Origin: Thermoplasmatota archaeon
GTDB taxonomy: Archaea > Thermoplasmatota > SW-10-69-26 > JACQPN01 > JAJPHT01
Reading direction: 5' to 3'
Length of the DNA stretch: 35,863 nucleotides
NCBI GenBank assembly: GCA_041599855.1
Contig: JBFILE010000001.1
Coordinates: 1 to 35,863 of the forward strand
The number at the start of each line of letters is the position of its first letter. The first letter of the stretch is position 1. Under the pieces are notes generated by a model, which searched no databases, had not been told where the DNA came from, and saw only the letters and a list, made by a program, of their open reading frames with translations. A program made the position numbers and the translations under genes. Below are positions 13,180-22,319 of the stretch, one piece after another.

Positions 13180-13899
13180 ATGCCTGCAACCCTGTCCACG
13201 ACGGGGATCTCCGGCCTCGATGCTCAACTTGGCGGCGGGGTCCCCCGAGGATCCACGATCCTGCTCCTGTCGGAGCCAGGCAACGCCATCTCCCTTTTCT
13301 CGGAGCAGTTCGCAGGTGGCGGGCTCATGGTGAATGATCCGGTCACGTACATCGAGATGGATCGCCCGCCTGTTGGCCTTCGGGACAGGATCCTCGCGTT
13401 CAAGCAGGGGAACGGGACCCAACCCCAGCTCGACGTCCACGACGGGTACTCGAGCCAGTTTGCCATCGCGCGGACCGCAGCGAAGCAACCGGGCGTCCTC
13501 GGGATGAAGCGGGAGGACGTGTTCAACACGGCCATCAAGGCCGCCATGAGCGCGGGACAGAATTATCGCCTCGTCATCGAGAGCCTCAGTGGATTCACGC
13601 GCCCCGAGAACGAGGCCAGCGTCGTCGAGTTCGTCCGTAACCTCAGCTTCATCGGCCAGGAATACGGGGGCATGCACATGATCTCCCTCGTGAAGGGCCT
13701 CCACAGCCCCCAGTTCGAGACCCAGTTGCGCCATCTCGCAACAGGTGTCCTCGAGGTCGGGTCCGAGAAGAAGGGGTTCGGGATCTACTCGTACCTCATC
13801 GTCTCGAAGATGCTGAACGTCCGGGATCCGGTCCGCATGCTCCTCTTCAAGGAGACGGACAAGGGATTGTGGCTGGAATCCACGAAGCGGGTGTTCTGA
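13180..13899 (+). CDS. KaiC/RecA-superfamily, ArlH(FlaH)-like protein with a degenerate Walker A motif
   Basis: 239 aa. TGISGLDAQLGGGVPRGSTILLLSEPGNAISLFSEQFA aligns to the KaiC/ArlH pattern tGIpgLDelLgGGlprGs..li.GppGtGKT. Walker-B-like YRLVIESLSGF is present. The P-loop reads S-E-P-G-N-A-I-S and has no lysine. Confidence 0.7.
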   Translation: MPATLSTTGISGLDAQLGGGVPRGSTILLLSEPGNAISLFSEQFAGGGLMVNDPVTYIEMDRPPVGLRDRILAFKQGNGTQPQLDVHDGYSSQFAIARTAAKQPGVLGMKREDVFNTAIKAAMSAGQNYRLVIESLSGFTRPENEASVVEFVRNLSFIGQEYGGMHMISLVKGLHSPQFETQLRHLATGVLEVGSEKKGFGIYSYLIVSKMLNVRDPVRMLLFKETDKGLWLESTKRVF

Positions 13900-15177: not shown

Positions 15178-15681
15178 ATGATCAAACGACGCTCGACAGG
15201 CATCCGCCGGAACGACTCAGGCGTGTCCGAGGTCATCGGTTTCCTCCTGATGTTCGTCATCTCGAGCTTCCTCCTCGTCATCGCCATGTCCACGTTCAAC
15301 AACTCGCAGGACACGAGCGAGGGCGTCGTGACCGCAGTCGAGATGAAGAGTGTCGCCGCGCGCGTCGCAAGCCGCGTCCTCGAAGCGTCCATCGTGGCGC
15401 AGGATTTCCCCAACGCCACCTACGAGATCCAGGTGGACCTGCCGACGCCTCCCAACGACCGCGACTACCGCGTGACACTCACCGCATCCTCGGTGGATGT
15501 GGACACGACGAAAGGCAGCGCCACGGCAACCACGACCACGTACAAGCTGGACGCGATCAACGACCTCGTGCTCTCCGGCGAAGTGTACAGCTACCACAAG
15601 ACCGCCGTCATCCGGTACGCCCCAGTGATCTCGGGCAGCACCCTGACGAAGACCATCACCCTCCTCCCCCTCCAGGACTGA
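15178..15681 (+). CDS. Small archaeal type IV prepilin-like protein (167 aa; candidate major subunit)
   Basis: MIKRRSTGIRRNDSGVSEVIGFLLMFVISSFLLVIAM: short basic n-region plus Pilin_N motif. GGAGGA lies 7 nt upstream of ATG 15178. Confidence 0.75.
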   Translation: MIKRRSTGIRRNDSGVSEVIGFLLMFVISSFLLVIAMSTFNNSQDTSEGVVTAVEMKSVAARVASRVLEASIVAQDFPNATYEIQVDLPTPPNDRDYRVTLTASSVDVDTTKGSATATTTTYKLDAINDLVLSGEVYSYHKTAVIRYAPVISGSTLTKTITLLPLQD

Positions 15682-15685
15682 TACC

Positions 15686-18600
15686 ATGGAACGCTCGATC
15701 AATCTCCGGGAATTCATCCACGCGCTCCGGGACTCGAGCGCCGACGTCCCGCCCGCCCGACTCCTTGCGAACGCGCCCGATGCATGGGCCGCGCTCACGA
15801 CCGACGACCGCGCTGCGATCCTCGCCCATTTCGACATGGCCGACGTGGACGCCGACGCCCTGACCATCGCCATCCGCAAGGTCTCGGATGGACCGTCCAC
15901 GGTGGACAATGTCCGCGTGATCCTGTCATGGCCGGGAGACGACGCCGCGACCGACGGCCACGATTCCGGTGACCAGCGTGCCGACGGTGAAGAGGTTCCG
16001 GCGCAGGAAGGACTCCCGTCAACCGCCCACGGGGAACTGGAAGGTCCGCCTGTGGCGGAAGCCCTCGCCGACGACAGCGGAGAACCCGCCCCGGACCTGT
16101 CGCCCGACATGTCGCCCGGAATGCCGCTGGACGAAGCGCCGGACATGTCGCCCGGAATGCCGCGCGACGACGCGCCGGACATGGCCCCCGCGTCGGACGA
16201 AGGCCACGCCCCAATCGACACCGACCACTTCGCGTTCGACGAAACGACCACCGCCGAGGTCCTGCCGAACGAGGCCTCCGAGGATGGGGCCCAACCGGCC
16301 ACCTTCGAACATTTCGAGGCCCTGGCGGAAGACGCATCCGCCGAGGCCATGATGGCGGAGGGGTTGCCGGAGACCGATGACGCCGTCGAAATGGACGTGT
16401 CTGCGCCTTCCGACAGCGAACCATTCGCGGAATCCGCCCTCGTCCATGCCTCTCCCGATGAGCCGGTTTTCGTGACTGCGGAGGAAGTGCCGGGAACGGA
16501 ACTCGCGGGCCACGGCGTCCTCTCCCCGCCCGGGGCCCATGACCACGCCCCGGGCTACGCCGGTCCCGATTCAAACGCCTCGGCACCCGAGCCCTTCGAC
16601 GATCTCGACGCCATGACGGAAGAGCGGCAGGGCCCGACCGCCCTTGCGATCGTCGATGATGAACCGACCCTGGATGCCGACGCTGGACCCCTCGCCGAGG
16701 AGCCGGAACCGGTCGACCCGGAAACCGGAAGCGCAGCGGCGGAAGCGGGTGCTCCCGCGGACGCCGACACCGACGCCGAAGTCGGGGGCGAACTCCCCCC
16801 CGGCGAGGGCGATCCCTTCGAGGAACCGAAGAAGGGCCTCTTCGGAAAACTCTTCAAGAAAAAAGCTGCGGACGCATCCGATTCCGACGGGCCGATCACG
16901 GTCATCCCGCCCCTTGAGGCCCCCCTCCGCGAGATCGAGGTCTACCCGATCCAGGACCCCTACGCGTTCGTCCGCATCGCCTACGATGACAAGGCGCACG
17001 AGTACGTCTACGAGGTCCTTGAACCGCAGATGGATGAGCGGGAACAGAACATCCTCGAATTCGTCGAGGAGACCCTCGTCGATGTCATCGAGGTCGGCCT
17101 CGCAAAGCTCGGCATGAAGGCCGCCGCCGAGATGCTCACACGGAGCATCGACGAGATCATCTTCGACTACTCCATCGTCCTTTCCCCCAAGTCCAAGGAG
17201 AAGGTCGTGTACTACATCCTGAGGAATTTCCTCGGGTTCGGAAAACTCGACCCCATGATGCGGGACAGTGAGATCGAGGATATCTCGTGCGACGGACCCA
17301 ACATCCCGATCTTCGTGTACCACCGGAAGTACGAGTCGTTCCGCAGCACCATCATGTTCAATGATCATGACGAAGCGGATTCCTTCGTCATCCGGCTCGC
17401 CCAGCGGTCCGGGAAGCACATCTCGATCGCCGAACCCCTGCTCGATGCCACGCTCCCGGACGGGTCGCGTCTGAATGCGACGTTGTCCGACGAGGTTACC
17501 GCGAACGGGTCCACGTTCACCATCCGGAAGTTCAAGCCGGATCCGTTCTCCCCGCCTGACCTTGTCCGCTTCGGCACCATGAATGCCGACATCCTCGCGT
17601 ACTGGTGGCTTGCCGTCCAGAATGGCGCGAGCGCCATCTACGCCGGAGGGACGGCTTCCGGGAAGACGACATCGCTCAATGCGATCCTGCTCTTCATTCC
17701 CGCGCAGATGAAGATCGTATCGATCGAGGATACGCGTGAAGTGAACCTGCCGCACCCGAACTGGATCCCCGGTGTGACGCGATCCGGCTTCGGGCCCCGC
17801 GACTCCCACGGGCGACAAGCCGGTGAGATCGACATGTTCACGCTCCTGAAGGCGGCCCTCCGCCAGCGGCCGGAATACATCCTCGTGGGTGAAGTGCGTG
17901 GCGCCGAGGCGTACGCCCTCTTCCAGGCCATGGCCACGGGCCACACGGCCTACGGGACCATGCACGCGGACTCGGCGGAAAGCGTCATCCACCGGTTGGA
18001 ATCGAGCCCGATCTCCATCCCGCGGAGTCTCCTTGAAGCCCTCGACATCGTCTCCATCCAGATCCAGACCCGCATCGGGGAACGCCGCGTGCGCCGCACC
18101 AAGGAACTCATCGAGATCGTGGGACTCGACCCCCATACCCGGGAGATCCTCACGAACGAGGTGTTCTCGTGGCATCCCGCCACGGATGAATTCGAGTTCA
18201 GCGGCGTCTCGTACGTCCTTGAGCGCATCCAGATGGAGCGGAACATGAGCGCCCACGACATGCGCCTCGAATTCGACGACCGGAAGCTCGTCATCGACTG
18301 GCTCATCAAGAAGGAGATCAACGATTACCTCGAAGTCGCCCACGTGATCCAACGCTACTACAAGGAGAAGGACAAGCTCATGGAGGAGGTCCGCCGCGAC
18401 ATGGAGGACGCACCGGTGGCCGATGAGCCGATGGCGGCGGATGACGCGTCGGACGACGAGCCCTTCGAGTTCGACGCCACTCCCCCGGATCATGAGAACG
18501 TCCTCGAACGCGGCGACCATGACCTCCTCGAAGCCGGCGATCCGGACCGCCTCGAACCCGGGGACCCGGATCTCCTTGAAGCCGGGAACGGCGACCTCCT

Positions 18601-18838
18601 CGAAGCCGGGAACGGCGACCTCCTTGAGAGCGGCGGATTCACGGCCCTGCCGAGCGAGGTCCCGAGCCCCGAGGAATCCCTCCACCGGGGCGACGGGGAT
18701 TCCCCGGATGCCGAAGGCGGCGCGGACGCGGCAGATGCGACCGACGACCGCAGGGACCACGGCCTTGTGGCGCCGTTGAACAGGAAGAAGAACGGGTCGC
18801 CCGACGGCGAGAACGGGGAGGGCGAGCGTGGCGCTTAA
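15686..18838 (+). CDS. ArlI/FlaI/PilB-family type IV filament secretion ATPase, with a ~400-aa N-terminal extension and a ~130-aa acidic repeat-containing C-terminal tail
   Basis: The core starts near residue 400 (ITVIPPLEAPLREIEVYPIQDPYAFVRIAYDD...YEVLEP). IEDISCDGPN...; Walker A AGGTASGKTTSLNA; Walker B KIVSIEDTREV; PEYILVGEVRGAEA; His box GHTAYGTMHA. ATG is 4 nt after the stop of the preceding pilin gene. Confidence 0.85.
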   Translation: MERSINLREFIHALRDSSADVPPARLLANAPDAWAALTTDDRAAILAHFDMADVDADALTIAIRKVSDGPSTVDNVRVILSWPGDDAATDGHDSGDQRADGEEVPAQEGLPSTAHGELEGPPVAEALADDSGEPAPDLSPDMSPGMPLDEAPDMSPGMPRDDAPDMAPASDEGHAPIDTDHFAFDETTTAEVLPNEASEDGAQPATFEHFEALAEDASAEAMMAEGLPETDDAVEMDVSAPSDSEPFAESALVHASPDEPVFVTAEEVPGTELAGHGVLSPPGAHDHAPGYAGPDSNASAPEPFDDLDAMTEERQGPTALAIVDDEPTLDADAGPLAEEPEPVDPETGSAAAEAGAPADADTDAEVGGELPPGEGDPFEEPKKGLFGKLFKKKAADASDSDGPITVIPPLEAPLREIEVYPIQDPYAFVRIAYDDKAHEYVYEVLEPQMDEREQNILEFVEETLVDVIEVGLAKLGMKAAAEMLTRSIDEIIFDYSIVLSPKSKEKVVYYILRNFLGFGKLDPMMRDSEIEDISCDGPNIPIFVYHRKYESFRSTIMFNDHDEADSFVIRLAQRSGKHISIAEPLLDATLPDGSRLNATLSDEVTANGSTFTIRKFKPDPFSPPDLVRFGTMNADILAYWWLAVQNGASAIYAGGTASGKTTSLNAILLFIPAQMKIVSIEDTREVNLPHPNWIPGVTRSGFGPRDSHGRQAGEIDMFTLLKAALRQRPEYILVGEVRGAEAYALFQAMATGHTAYGTMHADSAESVIHRLESSPISIPRSLLEALDIVSIQIQTRIGERRVRRTKELIEIVGLDPHTREILTNEVFSWHPATDEFEFSGVSYVLERIQMERNMSAHDMRLEFDDRKLVIDWLIKKEINDYLEVAHVIQRYYKEKDKLMEEVRRDMEDAPVADEPMAADDASDDEPFEFDATPPDHENVLERGDHDLLEAGDPDRLEPGDPDLLEAGNGDLLEAGNGDLLESGGFTALPSEVPSPEESLHRGDGDSPDAEGGADAADATDDRRDHGLVAPLNRKKNGSPDGENGEGERGA
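16103..16200 (+). repeat. 36-nt in-frame tandem repeat in the ATPase N-terminal extension
   Basis: PDMSPGMPLDEA / PDMSPGMPRDDA / PDMAPASDEG. At the DNA level, ggacatgtcgcccggaatgccgc occurs twice. Confidence 0.8.
18515..18634 (+). repeat. Five 24-nt in-frame tandem repeats in the ATPase C-terminal tail
   Basis: DHDLLEAG / DPDRLEPG / DPDLLEAG / NGDLLEAG / NGDLLESG. gaagccgggaacggcgacctcct is duplicated exactly. Confidence 0.85.
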
Positions 18839-19703
18839 CGAGTTTCAGCGGGTATCGTACAAGATGTTCGGCGGCGCCGTCTCCAACATGGGGAACGTGG
18901 CCAAACTCAAGGACGACCTCAGGCAGGCCCACCTCGGCATCCGGGCGGAAGCGTTCCTAGCGACCAGCTTCGTGATCGCCGGCATATCGACACTCCTCAG
19001 TCTCGTCCTCGCGTTGCTCGCGTACACCATCCTCCTGCCCCTCGCAGGAATCGCACTGCCGCCCCTTGCCATCGTGGGCGTCATCATGTTCCCGATCTTC
19101 GTCGGCCTCATGGCCTACGTGTCCACGGTTGCCGGGCCCGCGTCCCGCGCCAAGGCGCGGTCCAAGGACATCGACATGAAGATCCCGTACGCGCTGAACT
19201 ACATCGCGGCAATGGCCAGCGCCGGGGTCCAGCTCGACGAGATGTTCCGGTCCCTTGCGAACCAGAAGATCTACGGGGAGTGCGCGCGGGAAGCCGAACG
19301 GCTGTACCGTGACATGGCCTACTTCGGACGCGATTCCGTGAGCGCCATGAAGCTCGCCATCGGACGGTCGCCGTCCGAGAAGTGGACGGAATTCCTCCAG
19401 GGCGCCATCACCACCGTCACGAGTGGCGGCGACCTGCAGGTGTACTTCCAGGCCAAGGCGCAGCGGTACATGTGGGAGAACCGCCAGGAACAGAAGGCCT
19501 TCGTCGAGATGATGGGGCTCATGGCGGAAACGTATGTGACCGCGTGTGTGGCCGGCCCCCTCTTCCTCATCGTCATGATGGCGATCATGGGCATGATGGG
19601 AGGCGGCGGACCCGGTCAACTGCTCCTCATCGTGTACGGGCTCCTGCCCATTGCGAATGCCGGTTTCGTCTTCGCCCTCCAGGCGATGACCCCGGAGGTG
19701 TGA
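18828..19703 (+). CDS. Type IV filament platform protein, single T2SSF domain (ArlJ/TadB-like half)
   Basis: N-terminal TM helices, a cytoplasmic T2SSF-like domain (IPYALNYIAAMASAGVQLDEMFRSLA...SAMKLAIGRSPSEKWTEFLQGAITTVTSGGDLQVYF), then 2 C-terminal TM helices. GTG start with GGGGAGGG 6 nt upstream. Overlaps the ATPase stop by 11 nt. Confidence 0.75.
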   Translation: MALNEFQRVSYKMFGGAVSNMGNVAKLKDDLRQAHLGIRAEAFLATSFVIAGISTLLSLVLALLAYTILLPLAGIALPPLAIVGVIMFPIFVGLMAYVSTVAGPASRAKARSKDIDMKIPYALNYIAAMASAGVQLDEMFRSLANQKIYGECAREAERLYRDMAYFGRDSVSAMKLAIGRSPSEKWTEFLQGAITTVTSGGDLQVYFQAKAQRYMWENRQEQKAFVEMMGLMAETYVTACVAGPLFLIVMMAIMGMMGGGGPGQLLLIVYGLLPIANAGFVFALQAMTPEV

Positions 19704-19706
19704 TCC

Positions 19707-22319
19707 ATGAACGGGAACGCGAACCGGGGAGAAGCGCCGACCGAACCGCAACAGGACGCGCCGGAAGCGGGCCGCCTGCCACCCACGGGACTCCTCGCCG
19801 ACCCCCGGCGACTCGCAAGGATTGCGAAGATCATGGGATTCACCGCGGCGATCGTCGCGGTTTCCGCCGTCCTCGTGAGCCTGTTCGTGTCCCCCACGGG
19901 GGCTGTCCTCGTCCTTGGACTCGCACTCGCGATGGCCACCGTGCCGGTGGTCGCATTCGCCCTCGCACCCCTCCCGCAGGTGGACGAGGCGGACGAGGAA
20001 CTCGCGTTCCGGGGCGACCTGTTCCTCAACGGATACACGATCGTCCTGTCGATCGCGTTCCTGACCCTCGGGCTCATCAACGTGCTCGCGATCTTCGCCG
20101 CATTCGGGGCGTTCCTCGTCTTCGGCGATTTTGCCGAGAACTTCGTGAACCTGTTCGTGGTCGTCCTCGCGGGCCCCGTCGGACTCCTCGCCCTTGCCAT
20201 CCCGCTCGCGGCAACGTCCAACACGAAGGGCGCCCGACGCCTCAGCCGGCAGGCGCTCCAGGCAACGTGGATCACTCTCGGCGCGACCGCACTCCTCGGC
20301 GTCCTGACACTCGGGACGGCCTTCGGCGCCCTCGATGCCCTCGGCATCGGGTTCATGAAATCGTCGCGCGCGAGCTTCGTGCTCGCGTTCGCAGCCATCA
20401 CCGCGTACCTTGCGGCCCGGAACACGCTCCGCCTCCCGGACCTGAGGGCGGTCGCGGAATGGATCGAGCATGAGCCGCGGTTCCGTGATTCGAACATCCC
20501 GAAAGCCACGGTCATCGCGGCAAGCGCCCTCTCCGGCCTCGCCGTCATCCTCAGCCTCCTCGCCGGCTTCGGCGTGCTCCCGGAAACCACGGCCATCTAC
20601 GCCGTCGTGGGTGCCATCGCGACCATCCTCGTGGCCGCATTCTCCATGGGCGTGACCCACGTGGAGACCCGCCTCGAATTCGGGGAAGGCGTGGAGGGCG
20701 CGCGACACCTGCGCAAGCTCATCCTGGGCACACTCAGCGTCGCCCTCGGCCTCCTCGCACTTGTCCTTGCCATCGTGACCGGCCTCGCGTTCCTCGCGCA
20801 GGTGGCCAACGTCGCACTCTTCAAGGACCTGCTGCGCCTGTTCGTGGACAACCATCCGCTCATCCTCGCCCTGGCCCTCCTGCCGCTTCTTGCCACTGTG
20901 ATTGCGCGTGTCTACGTGCCCACGGACGTGAAGTACACGGAGCGCGCCAAGGCCCTGAGCGCCGTCCTCGTCACTGTCATCGCCGTCAGCACATTCTACG
21001 GTGGATTCATCGGAAGCGGCCTCGCCCAAGGCGCCGGCATCGAACTCTCGAATGCGGTCCTGATGCTCTCGACCGCGGTCATCGCGCTCACCCTGTTCGT
21101 CAAGATCCGTGCCCTCCTGCCCGGCATCGTCAGCATGATGCGGGAGCGCATCGACGCGAGCGCGGAAGCGGACACGACCACGAAGGAGACCATCCGACGG
21201 AACATGATCGCCACATACGTGGTGAGCACCGTGCTCCTCCTCGCGTTCACCGGCGTCATCGTGGCCGCGAGCCTCGGCGTCCTCCCCGTCCAGGAGGGCG
21301 TCGCCTTCGACCTCACGCTTTTCGGCGTCTTCGTCGGCGGCATCATCCTCCTCGTCGTCCTCGTGATGAGGTACTTCCAGGGCGTCAACATCGACCCCCA
21401 GTGGGCCAAGAAGCAGAAGGAGGAGGACATCGGGAAGAAGCGGCTCACGCCCGAGGAACTCAACCGGTACCTCATCCTCGGATTCAGCAGCGTCGTCGCG
21501 GTCACGCTGACCACGTACGGTGCCCTCGTCTACGCCGAGATCTTCAACGCCCTCGGCCCCATCGACCTCGAGAAGCAGCATGCGACCGACTTCTTCGTGT
21601 TCGCGCTCCTCCTCGGTCTCGGCCCGTACGGCTGGTACCAGAACAAGGAGGCTGCCCGCATGCGGGCCATCGACAGCAAGTTCCCGGAATTCCTCCGCGA
21701 CCTCGCAGAGAGCGAGCGCAGCGGGATGACCCTGACCCAGGCCGTCGTGACGGCGTCCAAGGGGAACTACGGGGCCCTCACCTGGGAAATCCGCAAGATG
21801 GGTGCCCAGATCGAGTGGGGCATCTCGTTCACCGAAGCCATCGAACGCTTCGCCAAACGCGTCCGCACGCCCCTCATCGAACGCACCGTGAGCCTCATCG
21901 TGGAAGCCTCGAATGCGGGAGGCAGCGTCATGGACGTCCTCTCGGCAGCGGCGGAGGACAGCCGCGAGATCCAGCTCATCCTGAAGGAACGGAAGGCCTC
22001 GATGAGCATCTACGTGATGATCATCTACGTGGCATTCTGCGTGTTCGTGGGCGTCGTCGCCATCCTGAACGCCATGTTCATCCCCGAGGTCGCAAAGGCC
22101 ATGGCGAACGCGGATGGTGTGAAGATCGGGGGCGTCACGTTCCAGAAGTTCGACGAGGGCGCGTTCAAGATCGTGTTCTTCCACGCCGCCATCATCCAGG
22201 GCCTCGGCGGCGGACTCGTGGCCGGAGTGATGGAGGGCGGAAAGCCCGTGAACGGGCTCAAGCACGCATTCATCATGATCATCATCGCATACGTGGTGTT
22301 CCGGTTCCTCCTGATCTGA
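19707..22319 (+). CDS. Type IV filament platform protein, second T2SSF domain (ArlJ/TadC-like half), fused to a ~580-aa polytopic N-terminal membrane domain
   Basis: About 17 hydrophobic helices by eye. Then FPEFLRDLAESERSGMTLTQAVVTASKGNYGALTWEIRKMGAQIEWGISFTEAIERFAKRVRTPLIERTVSLIVEASNAGGSVMDVL (T2SSF signature) and 3 more TM helices. GGAGGTG lies 7 nt upstream of the ATG. 3-nt gap after the previous gene. Confidence 0.75.
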   Translation: MNGNANRGEAPTEPQQDAPEAGRLPPTGLLADPRRLARIAKIMGFTAAIVAVSAVLVSLFVSPTGAVLVLGLALAMATVPVVAFALAPLPQVDEADEELAFRGDLFLNGYTIVLSIAFLTLGLINVLAIFAAFGAFLVFGDFAENFVNLFVVVLAGPVGLLALAIPLAATSNTKGARRLSRQALQATWITLGATALLGVLTLGTAFGALDALGIGFMKSSRASFVLAFAAITAYLAARNTLRLPDLRAVAEWIEHEPRFRDSNIPKATVIAASALSGLAVILSLLAGFGVLPETTAIYAVVGAIATILVAAFSMGVTHVETRLEFGEGVEGARHLRKLILGTLSVALGLLALVLAIVTGLAFLAQVANVALFKDLLRLFVDNHPLILALALLPLLATVIARVYVPTDVKYTERAKALSAVLVTVIAVSTFYGGFIGSGLAQGAGIELSNAVLMLSTAVIALTLFVKIRALLPGIVSMMRERIDASAEADTTTKETIRRNMIATYVVSTVLLLAFTGVIVAASLGVLPVQEGVAFDLTLFGVFVGGIILLVVLVMRYFQGVNIDPQWAKKQKEEDIGKKRLTPEELNRYLILGFSSVVAVTLTTYGALVYAEIFNALGPIDLEKQHATDFFVFALLLGLGPYGWYQNKEAARMRAIDSKFPEFLRDLAESERSGMTLTQAVVTASKGNYGALTWEIRKMGAQIEWGISFTEAIERFAKRVRTPLIERTVSLIVEASNAGGSVMDVLSAAAEDSREIQLILKERKASMSIYVMIIYVAFCVFVGVVAILNAMFIPEVAKAMANADGVKIGGVTFQKFDEGAFKIVFFHAAIIQGLGGGLVAGVMEGGKPVNGLKHAFIMIIIAYVVFRFLLI

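Follow-up and report, generated by a model that had tools for sequence, protein, structure and literature searches.

A stretch of 35,863 nucleotides from a Thermoplasmatota genome (hereafter the window) encodes a real pilus motor ATPase of 1050 residues, in which a catalytic core of normal type is preceded by a folded cap, a long acidic disordered linker and a short basic-hydrophobic motif, and is followed by an acidic disordered tail (Table 1). We consider it probable, at roughly 0.6, that this single 1050-residue polypeptide assembles a pilus as an ATPase tethered to the membrane, and that its cap binds a partner from the end of a polyanionic tether that evolves fast. The layout is common to uncultured Thermoplasmatota relatives, and the protein is a variant of the pilus motor and not a new machine type.

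Table 1. Features of the ATPase gene, with positions in the window and residues of the encoded protein.
Feature	Position	Strand	Residues	Remarks
Whole ORF	15686..18838	+	1050 aa + TAA stop	Secretion/pilus ATPase extended at both termini
Cap domain	15686..15940	+	1-85	AF2 fold and profile search over the phylum
Acidic disordered linker	15941..16828	+	86-381	pLDDT <50, composition, comparison with P0002
36-nt tandem repeat, 2.5 copies, in linker	16101..16190	+	~140-169	PDMSPGMP[LR]D[ED]A; Tandem Repeats Finder
Basic-hydrophobic motif KKGLFGKLFKKK	16829..16864	+	382-393	Putative membrane-targeting amphipathic helix
GspE/ArlI-type ATPase core	16910..18400	+	409-905	N-domain, RecA-like C-domain and PilB3_C-like helices
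Walker A GGTASGKT	17645..17668	+	654-661	Invariant in 30-sequence alignment
Acidic disordered C-terminal tail	18422..18835	+	913-1050	pLDDT <50
Five 8-residue repeats in tail	18515..18634	+	944-983	[DN]-x-D-[LR]-L-E-[APS]-G; Tandem Repeats Finder
C-terminal end motif ERGA	18824..18835	+		Conserved end in orthologues

As judged from its sequence, the core is complete and apparently active. AF2 predicts residues 400-912 to be folded, the Pfam model T2SSE (PF00437) matches residues 578-789 with 113.9 bits (cut-off 24.9), and an alignment of 30 relatives shows no variation in GGTASGKTT (654-662), in RQRPEYILVGEVRG of the Walker B region (726-739) or in the TGH of the His box (751-753). The core aligns end-to-end, with motifs conserved, to the GspE of Archaeoglobus fulgidus (afGspE, PDB 2OAP; residues 409-901, E 2e-134) and to FlaI/ArlI of Sulfolobus acidocaldarius (4II7, E 5e-82), covering the full enzymes of 511 and 513 aa, respectively; CpaF, a member of the same superfamily, matches with an E-value of 1e-47. 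PilB3_C (residues 834-906) and PilB3_N (residues 414-447) match weakly, the former with 22.8 bits and both short of the Pfam cut-off, which is 27. These matches group the core with the adhesion-pilus ATPases of archaea, of the PilB3 type known from Haloferax volcanii, and the two models leave the cap, linker and tail uncovered. The protein does not qualify as the archaellum motor ArlI/FlaI: the NCBIfam FlaI model NF058587 (residues 419-894) scores 410.6 bits, below its equivalog cut-off of 550, and the archaellum operon families archaellin (ArlB), ArlF/G, ArlC/D/E and ArlX gave no match in the ten neighbouring ORFs scanned.

The gene lies in a pilus locus that is ordered as a KaiC-like protein, two pilin-like proteins, the ATPase, a split platform protein and then large pilin-like adhesins, and this gene order is repeated in two other genomes. 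The upstream neighbours are DUF7289/Pilin_N and DUF7266 proteins, and DUF72xx pilin-like proteins are of the kind that occurs in loci of archaeal adhesion pili. The platform is encoded by two neighbours with T2SSF domains (18828-19703 and 19707-22319), a split that is not seen with afGspE or FlaI and that recalls TadB/TadC of Tad systems. Similar to ArlI systems, the locus has a KaiC/ArlH-like gene and ArlJ-like platform genes; the KaiC-like protein, encoded at 13180-13899, scores 22.7 against ArlH (cut-off 215) and is without the P-loop lysine. Profile, catalytic motifs and the platform and pilin neighbours all assign the protein, on sequence evidence, to the GspE/PilB/ArlI superfamily.

The cap is a previously undescribed small folded domain. 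The first-pass annotation had proposed that about 85 N-terminal residues are folded, and this is borne out by conservation among orthologues and by confident AF2 models (pLDDT 87 overall and at least 89 for residues 1-80), which are reproduced in the full-length model and consist of a strand (2-6), four helices (7-16, 23-28, 30-36 and 39-48) and two further strands (60-65 and 76-81). A profile search over the phylum matched 19 of 301 genomes, which belong without exception to families f1-f6 within a single class. Apart from a 63-aa frame in genome G019, each match either immediately precedes an ATPase core or lies at the end of a contig with a truncated core opposite it. Two paralogous pilus ATPases carry the cap, the second copy in the source genome being at G000:C88, and one orthologue (P0028) has it in tandem duplicate. 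No Pfam match was obtained with residues 1-100 of the ATPase and 22 orthologues (23 caps; nothing below E 0.028), and no match came from PDB sequences searched with the cap profile (best E 0.17) or from Foldseek searches of the fold in PDB (best E 0.49, TM <0.4) and BFVD (best E 0.24). Searches relying on shared 5-residue words, which are of limited sensitivity, scored no free-standing cap among proteins of 55-175 aa and returned T2SSE ATPases as the only cap-bearing protein type. The cap has thus been found only on pilus ATPases, and appears to be a module dedicated to them and specific to one Thermoplasmatota class. Loci with the cap (P0016) and without it (P0024) have the same gene content; presence and absence therefore yield no candidate partner, and deducing one from gene content was abandoned.

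AF2 assigns a pLDDT below 50 to residues 87-398 and 913-1050. The linker (measured on residues 86-389) consists of 26% Asp and Glu, 2% Lys and Arg, 13% Pro and 17% Ala, with a hydrophobic fraction of 0.17 versus 0.36 for the core, and Asp and Glu make up 30% of the tail. The first-pass description of a ~330-residue acidic, disordered linker with a 36-nt tandem repeat and a ~130-residue acidic tail with five 8-residue repeats is upheld in acidity, predicted disorder and repeats, and we amend the lengths to about 300 residues for the linker and about 140 residues beyond the last core helix for the tail. Tandem Repeats Finder gave the linker repeat a score of 138 with 88% matches, and found the tail repeat as a 24-nt unit in 5.2 copies at 18501-18624 (score 111), encoding DHDLLEAG, DPDRLEPG, DPDLLEAG, NGDLLEAG and NGDLLESG. 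The acidic segments are not a proteome-wide trait: a comparable segment occurs in 29 of 1271 long ORFs, among which that of the ATPase is the second longest after a calcium-repeat protein. Halophilic adaptation as the cause of acidity was rejected on this ground, and also because the proteome has a median pI of 5.6 with 21% basic proteins and the core has the same net charge as that of orthologues with neutral linkers.

Both segments diverge far more than the core. Compared with the closest relative (P0002), in which the core is 89% identical, the linker shows 27% identity with 30% gaps and the tail 28% identity with 37% gaps. Because of this poor conservation and because both repeats are missing from P0002, the exact lengths and the repeats may be neutral. 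It is also possible, although we hold it to be the less likely view, that only cap, motif and core matter, and that the length, acidity and repeats of linker and tail are products of neutral slippage in low-complexity, GC-rich DNA. The lineage-specific nature of both tandem repeats fits such an origin, as do the variable linker lengths (about 60 to 310 aa in cap-bearing orthologues) and the position of the cap near the core in paralogue B. On the other hand, strongly acidic, lysine-poor linkers are common to P0001, P0002 and P0022, unlike the near-neutral, Pro/Ala/Lys-rich linkers of other orthologues, which suggests that composition is maintained within lineages; moreover, the acidic segment is an extreme outlier within its own genome, and the frame stays open in all variants. 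The very end of the tail is conserved, with a C-terminal [NHR]-G-[PA]-[QEA] (e.g., NGPQ, HGAQ and ERGA) in 17 of 21 cap-bearing orthologues.

Immediately before the N-domain, the first-pass annotation had noticed a basic segment and suggested that it might be a membrane-binding amphipathic helix. Its placement is conserved: close orthologues have the motif as [KR][KR]GL[FL]G[KR][LF]..K with 36-42 residues separating it from EVYP, where the core begins, and about 20 residues ahead of the first N-domain strand, and the cap-less P0024 (602 aa) still begins just before it. Within the poorly conserved linker region, the motif is 75% identical to that of P0002. It resembles the membrane-targeting sequence (MTS) of Escherichia coli MinD, which has been used experimentally as a membrane tag (PMC5471200): KGLFGKLF here and KGFLKRLF in the MinD MTS KGFLKRLFGG both read K-G-hydrophobic-hydrophobic-x-basic-L-F. 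The MinD MTS is C-terminal on a ParA/MinD ATPase, whereas the present motif is internal and N-terminal to the ATPase core, and the likeness is putative and of function only, with no homology implied. The hydrophobic moment (0.49) equals that of the MinD MTS (0.48), but 27% of shuffles of the same 9 residues reach 0.49, and the statistic is thus not significant for so short a peptide; AF2 predicted no helix for the motif in isolation.

By analogy with MinD, the motif may bind the membrane. Alternatively, it might be a linear motif that binds a protein, such as the platform or the KaiC-like protein, or it might fold back on the acidic linker or tail and autoinhibit the ATPase. The charge and hydrophobic complementarity of the motif with the acidic-hydrophobic DLLE units would suit this alternative, as would its statistically insignificant amphipathicity and the proposal that the intrinsically disordered region (IDR) of CpaF is an allosteric gate of activity (PMC12019362). 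We regard it as rather unlikely because orthologues whose linkers are neutral or basic and whose tails are short keep the same motif, so that an acidic partner in cis cannot be the general rule. Lipid binding is also favored by how closely the motif matches an MTS of proven function, and by its position beside an N-domain assumed to face the membrane.

For a tethered, membrane-bound motor we infer a mechanism that combines membrane binding, partner docking and possibly regulation by the acidic segments. The MinD-like motif would lay the membrane-facing side of the hexamer on the cytoplasmic leaflet, with six motif copies per hexamer providing avidity. The polyanionic tether of about 300 residues evolves fast by indels and repeat expansion, and the cap at its end might serve to dock a partner that belongs to the motor or lies close to it. 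The acidic disordered tail has the conserved short C-terminal motif at its end, with the DLLEAG unit amplified five-fold in the source lineage. Far more speculatively, and with a low probability in our estimate, cap, polyanionic tether, basic motif and acidic-hydrophobic tail repeats might together form a regulatory switch, in which the acidic segments would mask the basic motif and hold the resting ATPase off the membrane until engagement of the cap with a partner, or an ionic change, frees the motif and the hexamer docks on the platform. In a related scenario, the six polyanionic tethers of a hexamer might space or cluster pilus machines via electrostatic or condensate-like interactions. Membrane platform recruitment and regulation are poorly understood for archaeal type IV filament ATPases, and, if true, a switch or tether clustering would be a form of motor regulation in type IV filaments not previously described in archaea.

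All these segments are encoded in one frame. The frame is open over 1050 codons on the forward strand; upstream, the pilin-like gene ends with a TGA stop at 15679-15681 that is followed by TACC and the ATG at 15686, and downstream the GTG start of the next gene at 18828 overlaps the end of the ATPase ORF by 11 nt, so that the ATPase ORF is translationally coupled to both neighbors. The start at 15686, which the first-pass annotation had based on this 4-nt spacing, is supported by the sequence data, since a Met-led cap opens the same frame as the core in the orthologues L002, L005-L008, L010 and L012; cap and core are likewise in one frame in 20 database proteins. Translation from near residue 400, with upstream codons that are not conserved or are disrupted in frame, had been named as the finding that would speak against the long product, and the orthologues show the opposite. 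No ATG, GTG or TTG codon is present between residues 311 and 420, and a product starting near residue 400 is therefore unavailable; a shorter product, which the first-pass annotation had left open, may exist as an extra isoform initiating at M310.

We consider it very improbable that the gene encodes a canonical-size ATPase from an internal start, with the upstream 400 codons left untranslated, belonging to another gene or being annotated in error in a high-GC open frame. Long spurious open frames are abundant in high-GC genomes and cap-less orthologues of ~600 aa exist (P0024), and frame statistics alone are ambiguous: third-position GC is 0.70-0.92 throughout the frame, but first-position GC is equally high in the linker and GC does not discriminate against a +1 frame there. 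Nevertheless, the cap is a confidently folded domain that is kept in 19 genomes, in frame with the core wherever the frame could be read and at variable linker lengths, conservation extends to the basic motif ahead of the core, and use of the next start codon past residue 420 would remove the first strands of the N-domain. An intein or mobile insertion as the origin of the extra length was also rejected, as the added residues form low-complexity segments at the two ends and the core alignment is uninterrupted. The exact 1050-aa protein is known from one contig. The source bin is fragmented into 809 contigs, and in the related bins G002 and G003 contigs end within the linker of the ATPase gene; even so, an assembly chimera joining an unrelated upstream gene to the ATPase can be practically dismissed because the cap-linker-core order recurs on contigs assembled independently from numerous samples of different sources, including P0002 (91% query coverage).

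The first-pass annotation had described the ATPase as about twice the normal size. This is correct in comparison with afGspE and FlaI, relative to which it is longer by about 400 residues at the N-terminus and 140 at the C-terminus, but not as an unusual feature within the archaeal clade. Comparison with orthologues, which had been proposed as a check, shows that relatives share the cap-linker-core layout and that long N-terminal extensions are frequent: among 134 close representatives, 69% have an extension of at least 100 aa and 13% a total length of at least 1050 aa. Judged by these sequences, the size is not exceptional inside the clade.

The clade offers three handles for further work: an uncharacterised cap that seems dedicated to the ATPase and occurs in a single class of uncultured Thermoplasmatota, a MinD-like motif that is conserved and keeps its distance to the N-domain, and lineage-specific switches of the tether from near-neutral and Pro/Ala/Lys-rich to strongly polyanionic. 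What is gained is a new domain family that can now be defined and a hypothesis of membrane anchoring that is open to testing, and current models are not overturned. We found no description of such an ATPase architecture in the papers searched, which deal with pilus systems of archaea and with surface filaments of Thermoplasmatales.

The nearest known analogue is bacterial CpaF of classes II and III, which are organized as IDR-3HB-NTD-CAD and FHA-IDR-3HB-NTD-CAD, respectively; a truncated IDR leaves the ATPase activity of CpaF unimpaired but disturbs pilus dynamics (PMC12019362). Similar to both classes, the archaeal ATPase has a disordered N-terminal region before the core, and, as in class III, this region (pLDDT <50 over residues 87-398) lies between a folded end module and the ATPase. 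Unlike in class III, the end module is not FHA, given the lack of any Pfam or fold match, and the tether is polyanionic and ~300 aa long versus 79 aa in Caulobacter crescentus CpaF; the archaeal protein also adds the MinD-like basic motif and the disordered C-terminal tail. The parallel with the IDR and FHA-IDR classes of CpaF suggests that tethered N-terminal modules recur in Tad-like machines.

Among solved structures, the 511-aa GspE of A. fulgidus aligns over its full length with residues 409-901 of the protein (P0001; E 2e-134), the next matches to the core being S. acidocaldarius FlaI and then C. crescentus CpaF, so that residues ~409-905 make up a complete enzyme. The Pfam T2SSE ATPase domain was placed at residues 578-789 (113.9 bits) and the NCBIfam FlaI model at residues 419-894 (410.6 bits, under its 550-bit cut-off). 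About 400 N-terminal and 140 C-terminal residues lie outside the core. The observation of the first-pass annotation is confirmed, every feature that it describes being real and the linker length alone needing correction, and its reading is supported, tempered by the commonness of long extensions in this ATPase clade. HMMER, run exhaustively against 1.84 billion representatives, returned 20154 matches, and sizes were compared in the 134 best of these in which the Walker A motif could be placed: median length is 739 aa, at least 100 residues precede the core in 69% and at least 400 in 11%, and 13% reach at least 1050 aa. In some long relatives the match to the query core is broken into two or three stretches, as would be expected of inserted elements such as inteins; in others the N-terminal region is hydrophobic and presumably folded, or is of low complexity. 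The size of the query is therefore unusual against solved enzymes but not within its clade, and what is specific to it is the ordered set of cap, tether, basic motif, core, tail and end motif.

Searched in six frames, 30 related genomes yielded orthologues with 61-73% core identity. The open frames of six loci (L002, L005, L006, L007, L008 and L010), and more weakly of L012, read in the same layout: a Met-led start alignable with the cap over ~85 aa, a low-complexity linker of variable length, a KKGLFG-like motif and the core. Twenty database proteins among P0002-P0028 that bear the cap by profile share this layout, the closest being P0002 (926 aa, 91% query coverage). Because cap and core share one reading frame although the linker between them varies from ~60 to 310 aa, there is strong evidence that the whole region is coding, and this comparison of length and architecture favors the start at 15686 that had been proposed. 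Initiation near residue ~400, named at first pass as the refuting outcome, has no usable start codon, since no ATG, GTG or TTG occurs between residues 311 and 420 of the ORF. M310 is the sole internal start candidate that retains the basic motif, and a minor isoform may arise from it. At the other end, a motif [NHR]-G-[PA]-[QEA] terminates 17 of 21 cap-bearing orthologues (ERGA in the query), and the tail is therefore translated through to the annotated stop.

Coordinates of the ATPase, its parts and related proteins, with identity and gaps against the closest database protein, P0002 (G000, the window's own genome; C, contig; L013, another label of the same locus)
Feature	Position	Strand	Description	Identity	Gaps
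ATPase ORF	15686-18838	+	1050 codons open		
Cap	residues 1-85			52%	0%
Linker	residues 86-381		D+E 26%, K+R 2% (composition from 86-389); hydrophobic fraction 0.17 vs core 0.36	27%	30%
Basic motif	residues 382-393		KKGLFGKLFKKK	75%	0%
Core	residues 409-905			89%	0%
Tail	residues 906-1050		D+E 30%, K+R 6%	28%	37%
KaiC/ArlH-like protein, head of cluster	13180-13899	+	P-loop position reads LLLSEPGNAISLF		
Second cap-bearing pilus ATPase, 1418-aa ORF	G000:C88:7620-11877 (L013:1621-5877)	-	cap + core		
Aspartate-rich 883-aa protein	G000:C32:6138-8786	+	N-terminal hydrophobic segment; almost wholly D-x-D-x-D-G-like repeats		

The ATPase is encoded in a type IV pilus-like cluster comprising a KaiC/ArlH-like protein, two pilin-like proteins, the ATPase, a platform encoded as two T2SSF genes, and large pilin-like proteins. 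The 4-nt spacing reported earlier is correct, as the upstream DUF7266 pilin-like gene stops with TGA at 15679-15681, and the downstream T2SSF gene starts with GTG at 18828, overlapping the ORF end by 11 nt; the genes therefore form a tightly packed operon. The P-loop of the KaiC/ArlH-like protein (SEPGNAIS) has no lysine and its scores are far under the ArlH and KaiC cut-offs, so that it is likely a non-catalytic partner of the ATPase. An archaellum identity of the locus was rejected, the ArlI and ArlH scores being under cut-off, and no archaellin or ArlF/G/C/D/E/X was matched among the neighboring ORFs scanned. By source name, the nearest homologues in the protein database are from uncultured Thermoplasmatota archaea.

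The cap, described at first pass as folded, was modelled with AlphaFold2 (residues 1-100, 22 orthologous sequences) at a pLDDT of 87, and at least 89 for residues 1-80. The model is a small alpha/beta domain with a strand at residues 2-6, four helices and strands at 60-65 and 76-81, and the same domain was recovered in the full-length model. No Pfam family was found among 23 caps scanned, no PDB sequence matched, and the fold had no match in PDB or BFVD. The cap profile matches 19 of 301 genomes of the phylum, all in families f1-f6 of one class (8/8 genomes in f1, the window's genome left out, and 6/6 in f6), whereas the 42 further families sampled gave no match. Apart from a 63-aa frame in G019, each of these cap matches is immediately upstream of an ATPase core match from the six-frame search of 30 genomes; in G002 and G003 the cap is at a contig end, with the core likewise cut off at the end of another contig. 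A paralogous cap-bearing pilus ATPase is present alongside in the same genomes. In the window's own genome its cap is about 90 residues from a core 43% identical, its C-terminal region of 700-800 aa is rich in Ser, Pro, Ala, Gly and Arg, and its ORF overlaps the first 4 nt of a T2SSF gene, behind which lie several Pilin_N genes. Word-seeded searches, limited as such, found the cap neither as a free-standing small protein nor on non-ATPase proteins. Taken with the class-limited matches and the second pilus ATPase, this marks the cap as an ATPase-dedicated module limited to one class. Cap-bearing and cap-less loci carry identical genes (TauE, KaiC-like, pilin, DUF7266, ATPase, T2SSF of 291 aa and T2SSF of ~840 aa). 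P0028 (L014, G012:C231:378-1049) has two tandem caps ahead of the core with a Pro/Ala/Gln-rich spacer between them, and no obvious basic motif.

The basic motif lies immediately ahead of the ATPase N-domain, as first noted; close orthologues keep a [KR][KR]GL[FL]G[KR][LF]..K segment 36-42 residues before the EVYP start of that domain, and the cap-less orthologue P0024 (602 aa) begins just ahead of its own version. The N-domain side of FlaI-type enzymes is commonly regarded as facing the membrane platform. The motif shares a K-G-hydrophobic-hydrophobic-x-basic-L-F pattern with the membrane-targeting sequence of E. coli MinD, KGFLKRLFGG, which serves as a transplantable membrane tag (PMC5471200), and has an equal hydrophobic moment (0.49 against 0.48). 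Because of this likeness and the membrane-facing N-domain side, a putative membrane anchor is its most likely role. The main rival is that the motif instead binds protein or autoinhibits, consistent with a hydrophobic moment that is not significant against shuffles (nine residues compared). AlphaFold2 predicts no helix for the isolated motif, which is usual for lipid-induced helices yet no evidence for one.

With the motif read as an anchor, these results are best explained by a full-length ATPase for pilus assembly, in which six MinD-like motifs would lay the hexamer on the membrane. Its six class-specific caps, read as docking domains, are borne by polyanionic tethers that evolve fast, and its six disordered tails share the conserved end motif. 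The architecture and its conservation are demonstrated by the analysis, whereas we infer the membrane binding, the cap docking and any regulatory role. Among described architectures bacterial CpaF comes closest, with a 79-residue intrinsically disordered region (IDR) in class II and, in class III, an FHA domain and IDR followed by a three-helix bundle, N-domain and ATPase domain; IDR truncation leaves ATPase activity intact and impairs pilus extension and retraction (PMC12019362). The query follows the same plan of an N-terminal module or IDR ahead of the ATPase but falls outside these classes, since its cap is no FHA domain, its polyanionic tether has four times the length, and it also bears a membrane-type motif and a disordered tail. 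The papers searched, on pilus systems of archaea and on filaments of Thermoplasmatales, gave no description of this architecture.

Linker and tail are acidic and disordered as proposed, with pLDDT <50 at residues 87-398 and 913-1050 around the folded core, whereas the linker measures about 300 aa rather than ~330 aa. Tandem Repeats Finder verified both repeats, one with a 36-nt unit (x2.5) at 16101-16190 and one with a 24-nt unit (x5.2) at 18501-18624, the latter encoding DHDLLEAG, DPDRLEPG, DPDLLEAG, NGDLLEAG and NGDLLESG (residues 944-983); both are missing from P0002. No other protein in the cap-bearing set has so long a tether, and this one also ranks with the most acidic. Linkers are polyanionic in P0001, P0002 and P0022, whereas most orthologue linkers are near-neutral and Pro/Ala/Lys-rich, a polybasic cluster often following the cap; the core of P0001 nevertheless has the same charge (-4.2 per 100 residues) as the cores of orthologues whose linkers are neutral. 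Acidity as a proteome trait was rejected (median pI 5.6, 21% basic proteins in a crude ORF set of the genome). A comparable acidic 100-aa window occurs in only 29 of 1271 long ORFs, and the acidic stretch of the ATPase is exceeded only by that of the aspartate-rich repeat protein, which is likely calcium-binding.

Polybasic clusters 30-60 residues past the cap (e.g., KRSKKTKKR or KKSRKPKAKAKGK) were seen in the near-neutral linkers of P0003, P0009, P0010, L007 and L008, and are lost in the acidic-linker lineage, the window's protein included; P0003 has two KKGLFG-like motifs. The HHH_5 domain is absent from the window's ATPase; the acidic tail of P0022 ends in such a helix-hairpin-helix domain (residues 859-907, E 1e-10), the family is also in the precomputed Pfam lists of P0026 and P0027, and a P0051 segment looks similar by eye. 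This odd addition to a pilus ATPase is possibly DNA-binding. At L003 and L004 (G002:C28/C94 and G003:C148/C221) contigs break inside the linker, leaving cap and core on separate contig ends, a hint that this low-complexity or repetitive region is difficult to assemble or differs among members of a population.
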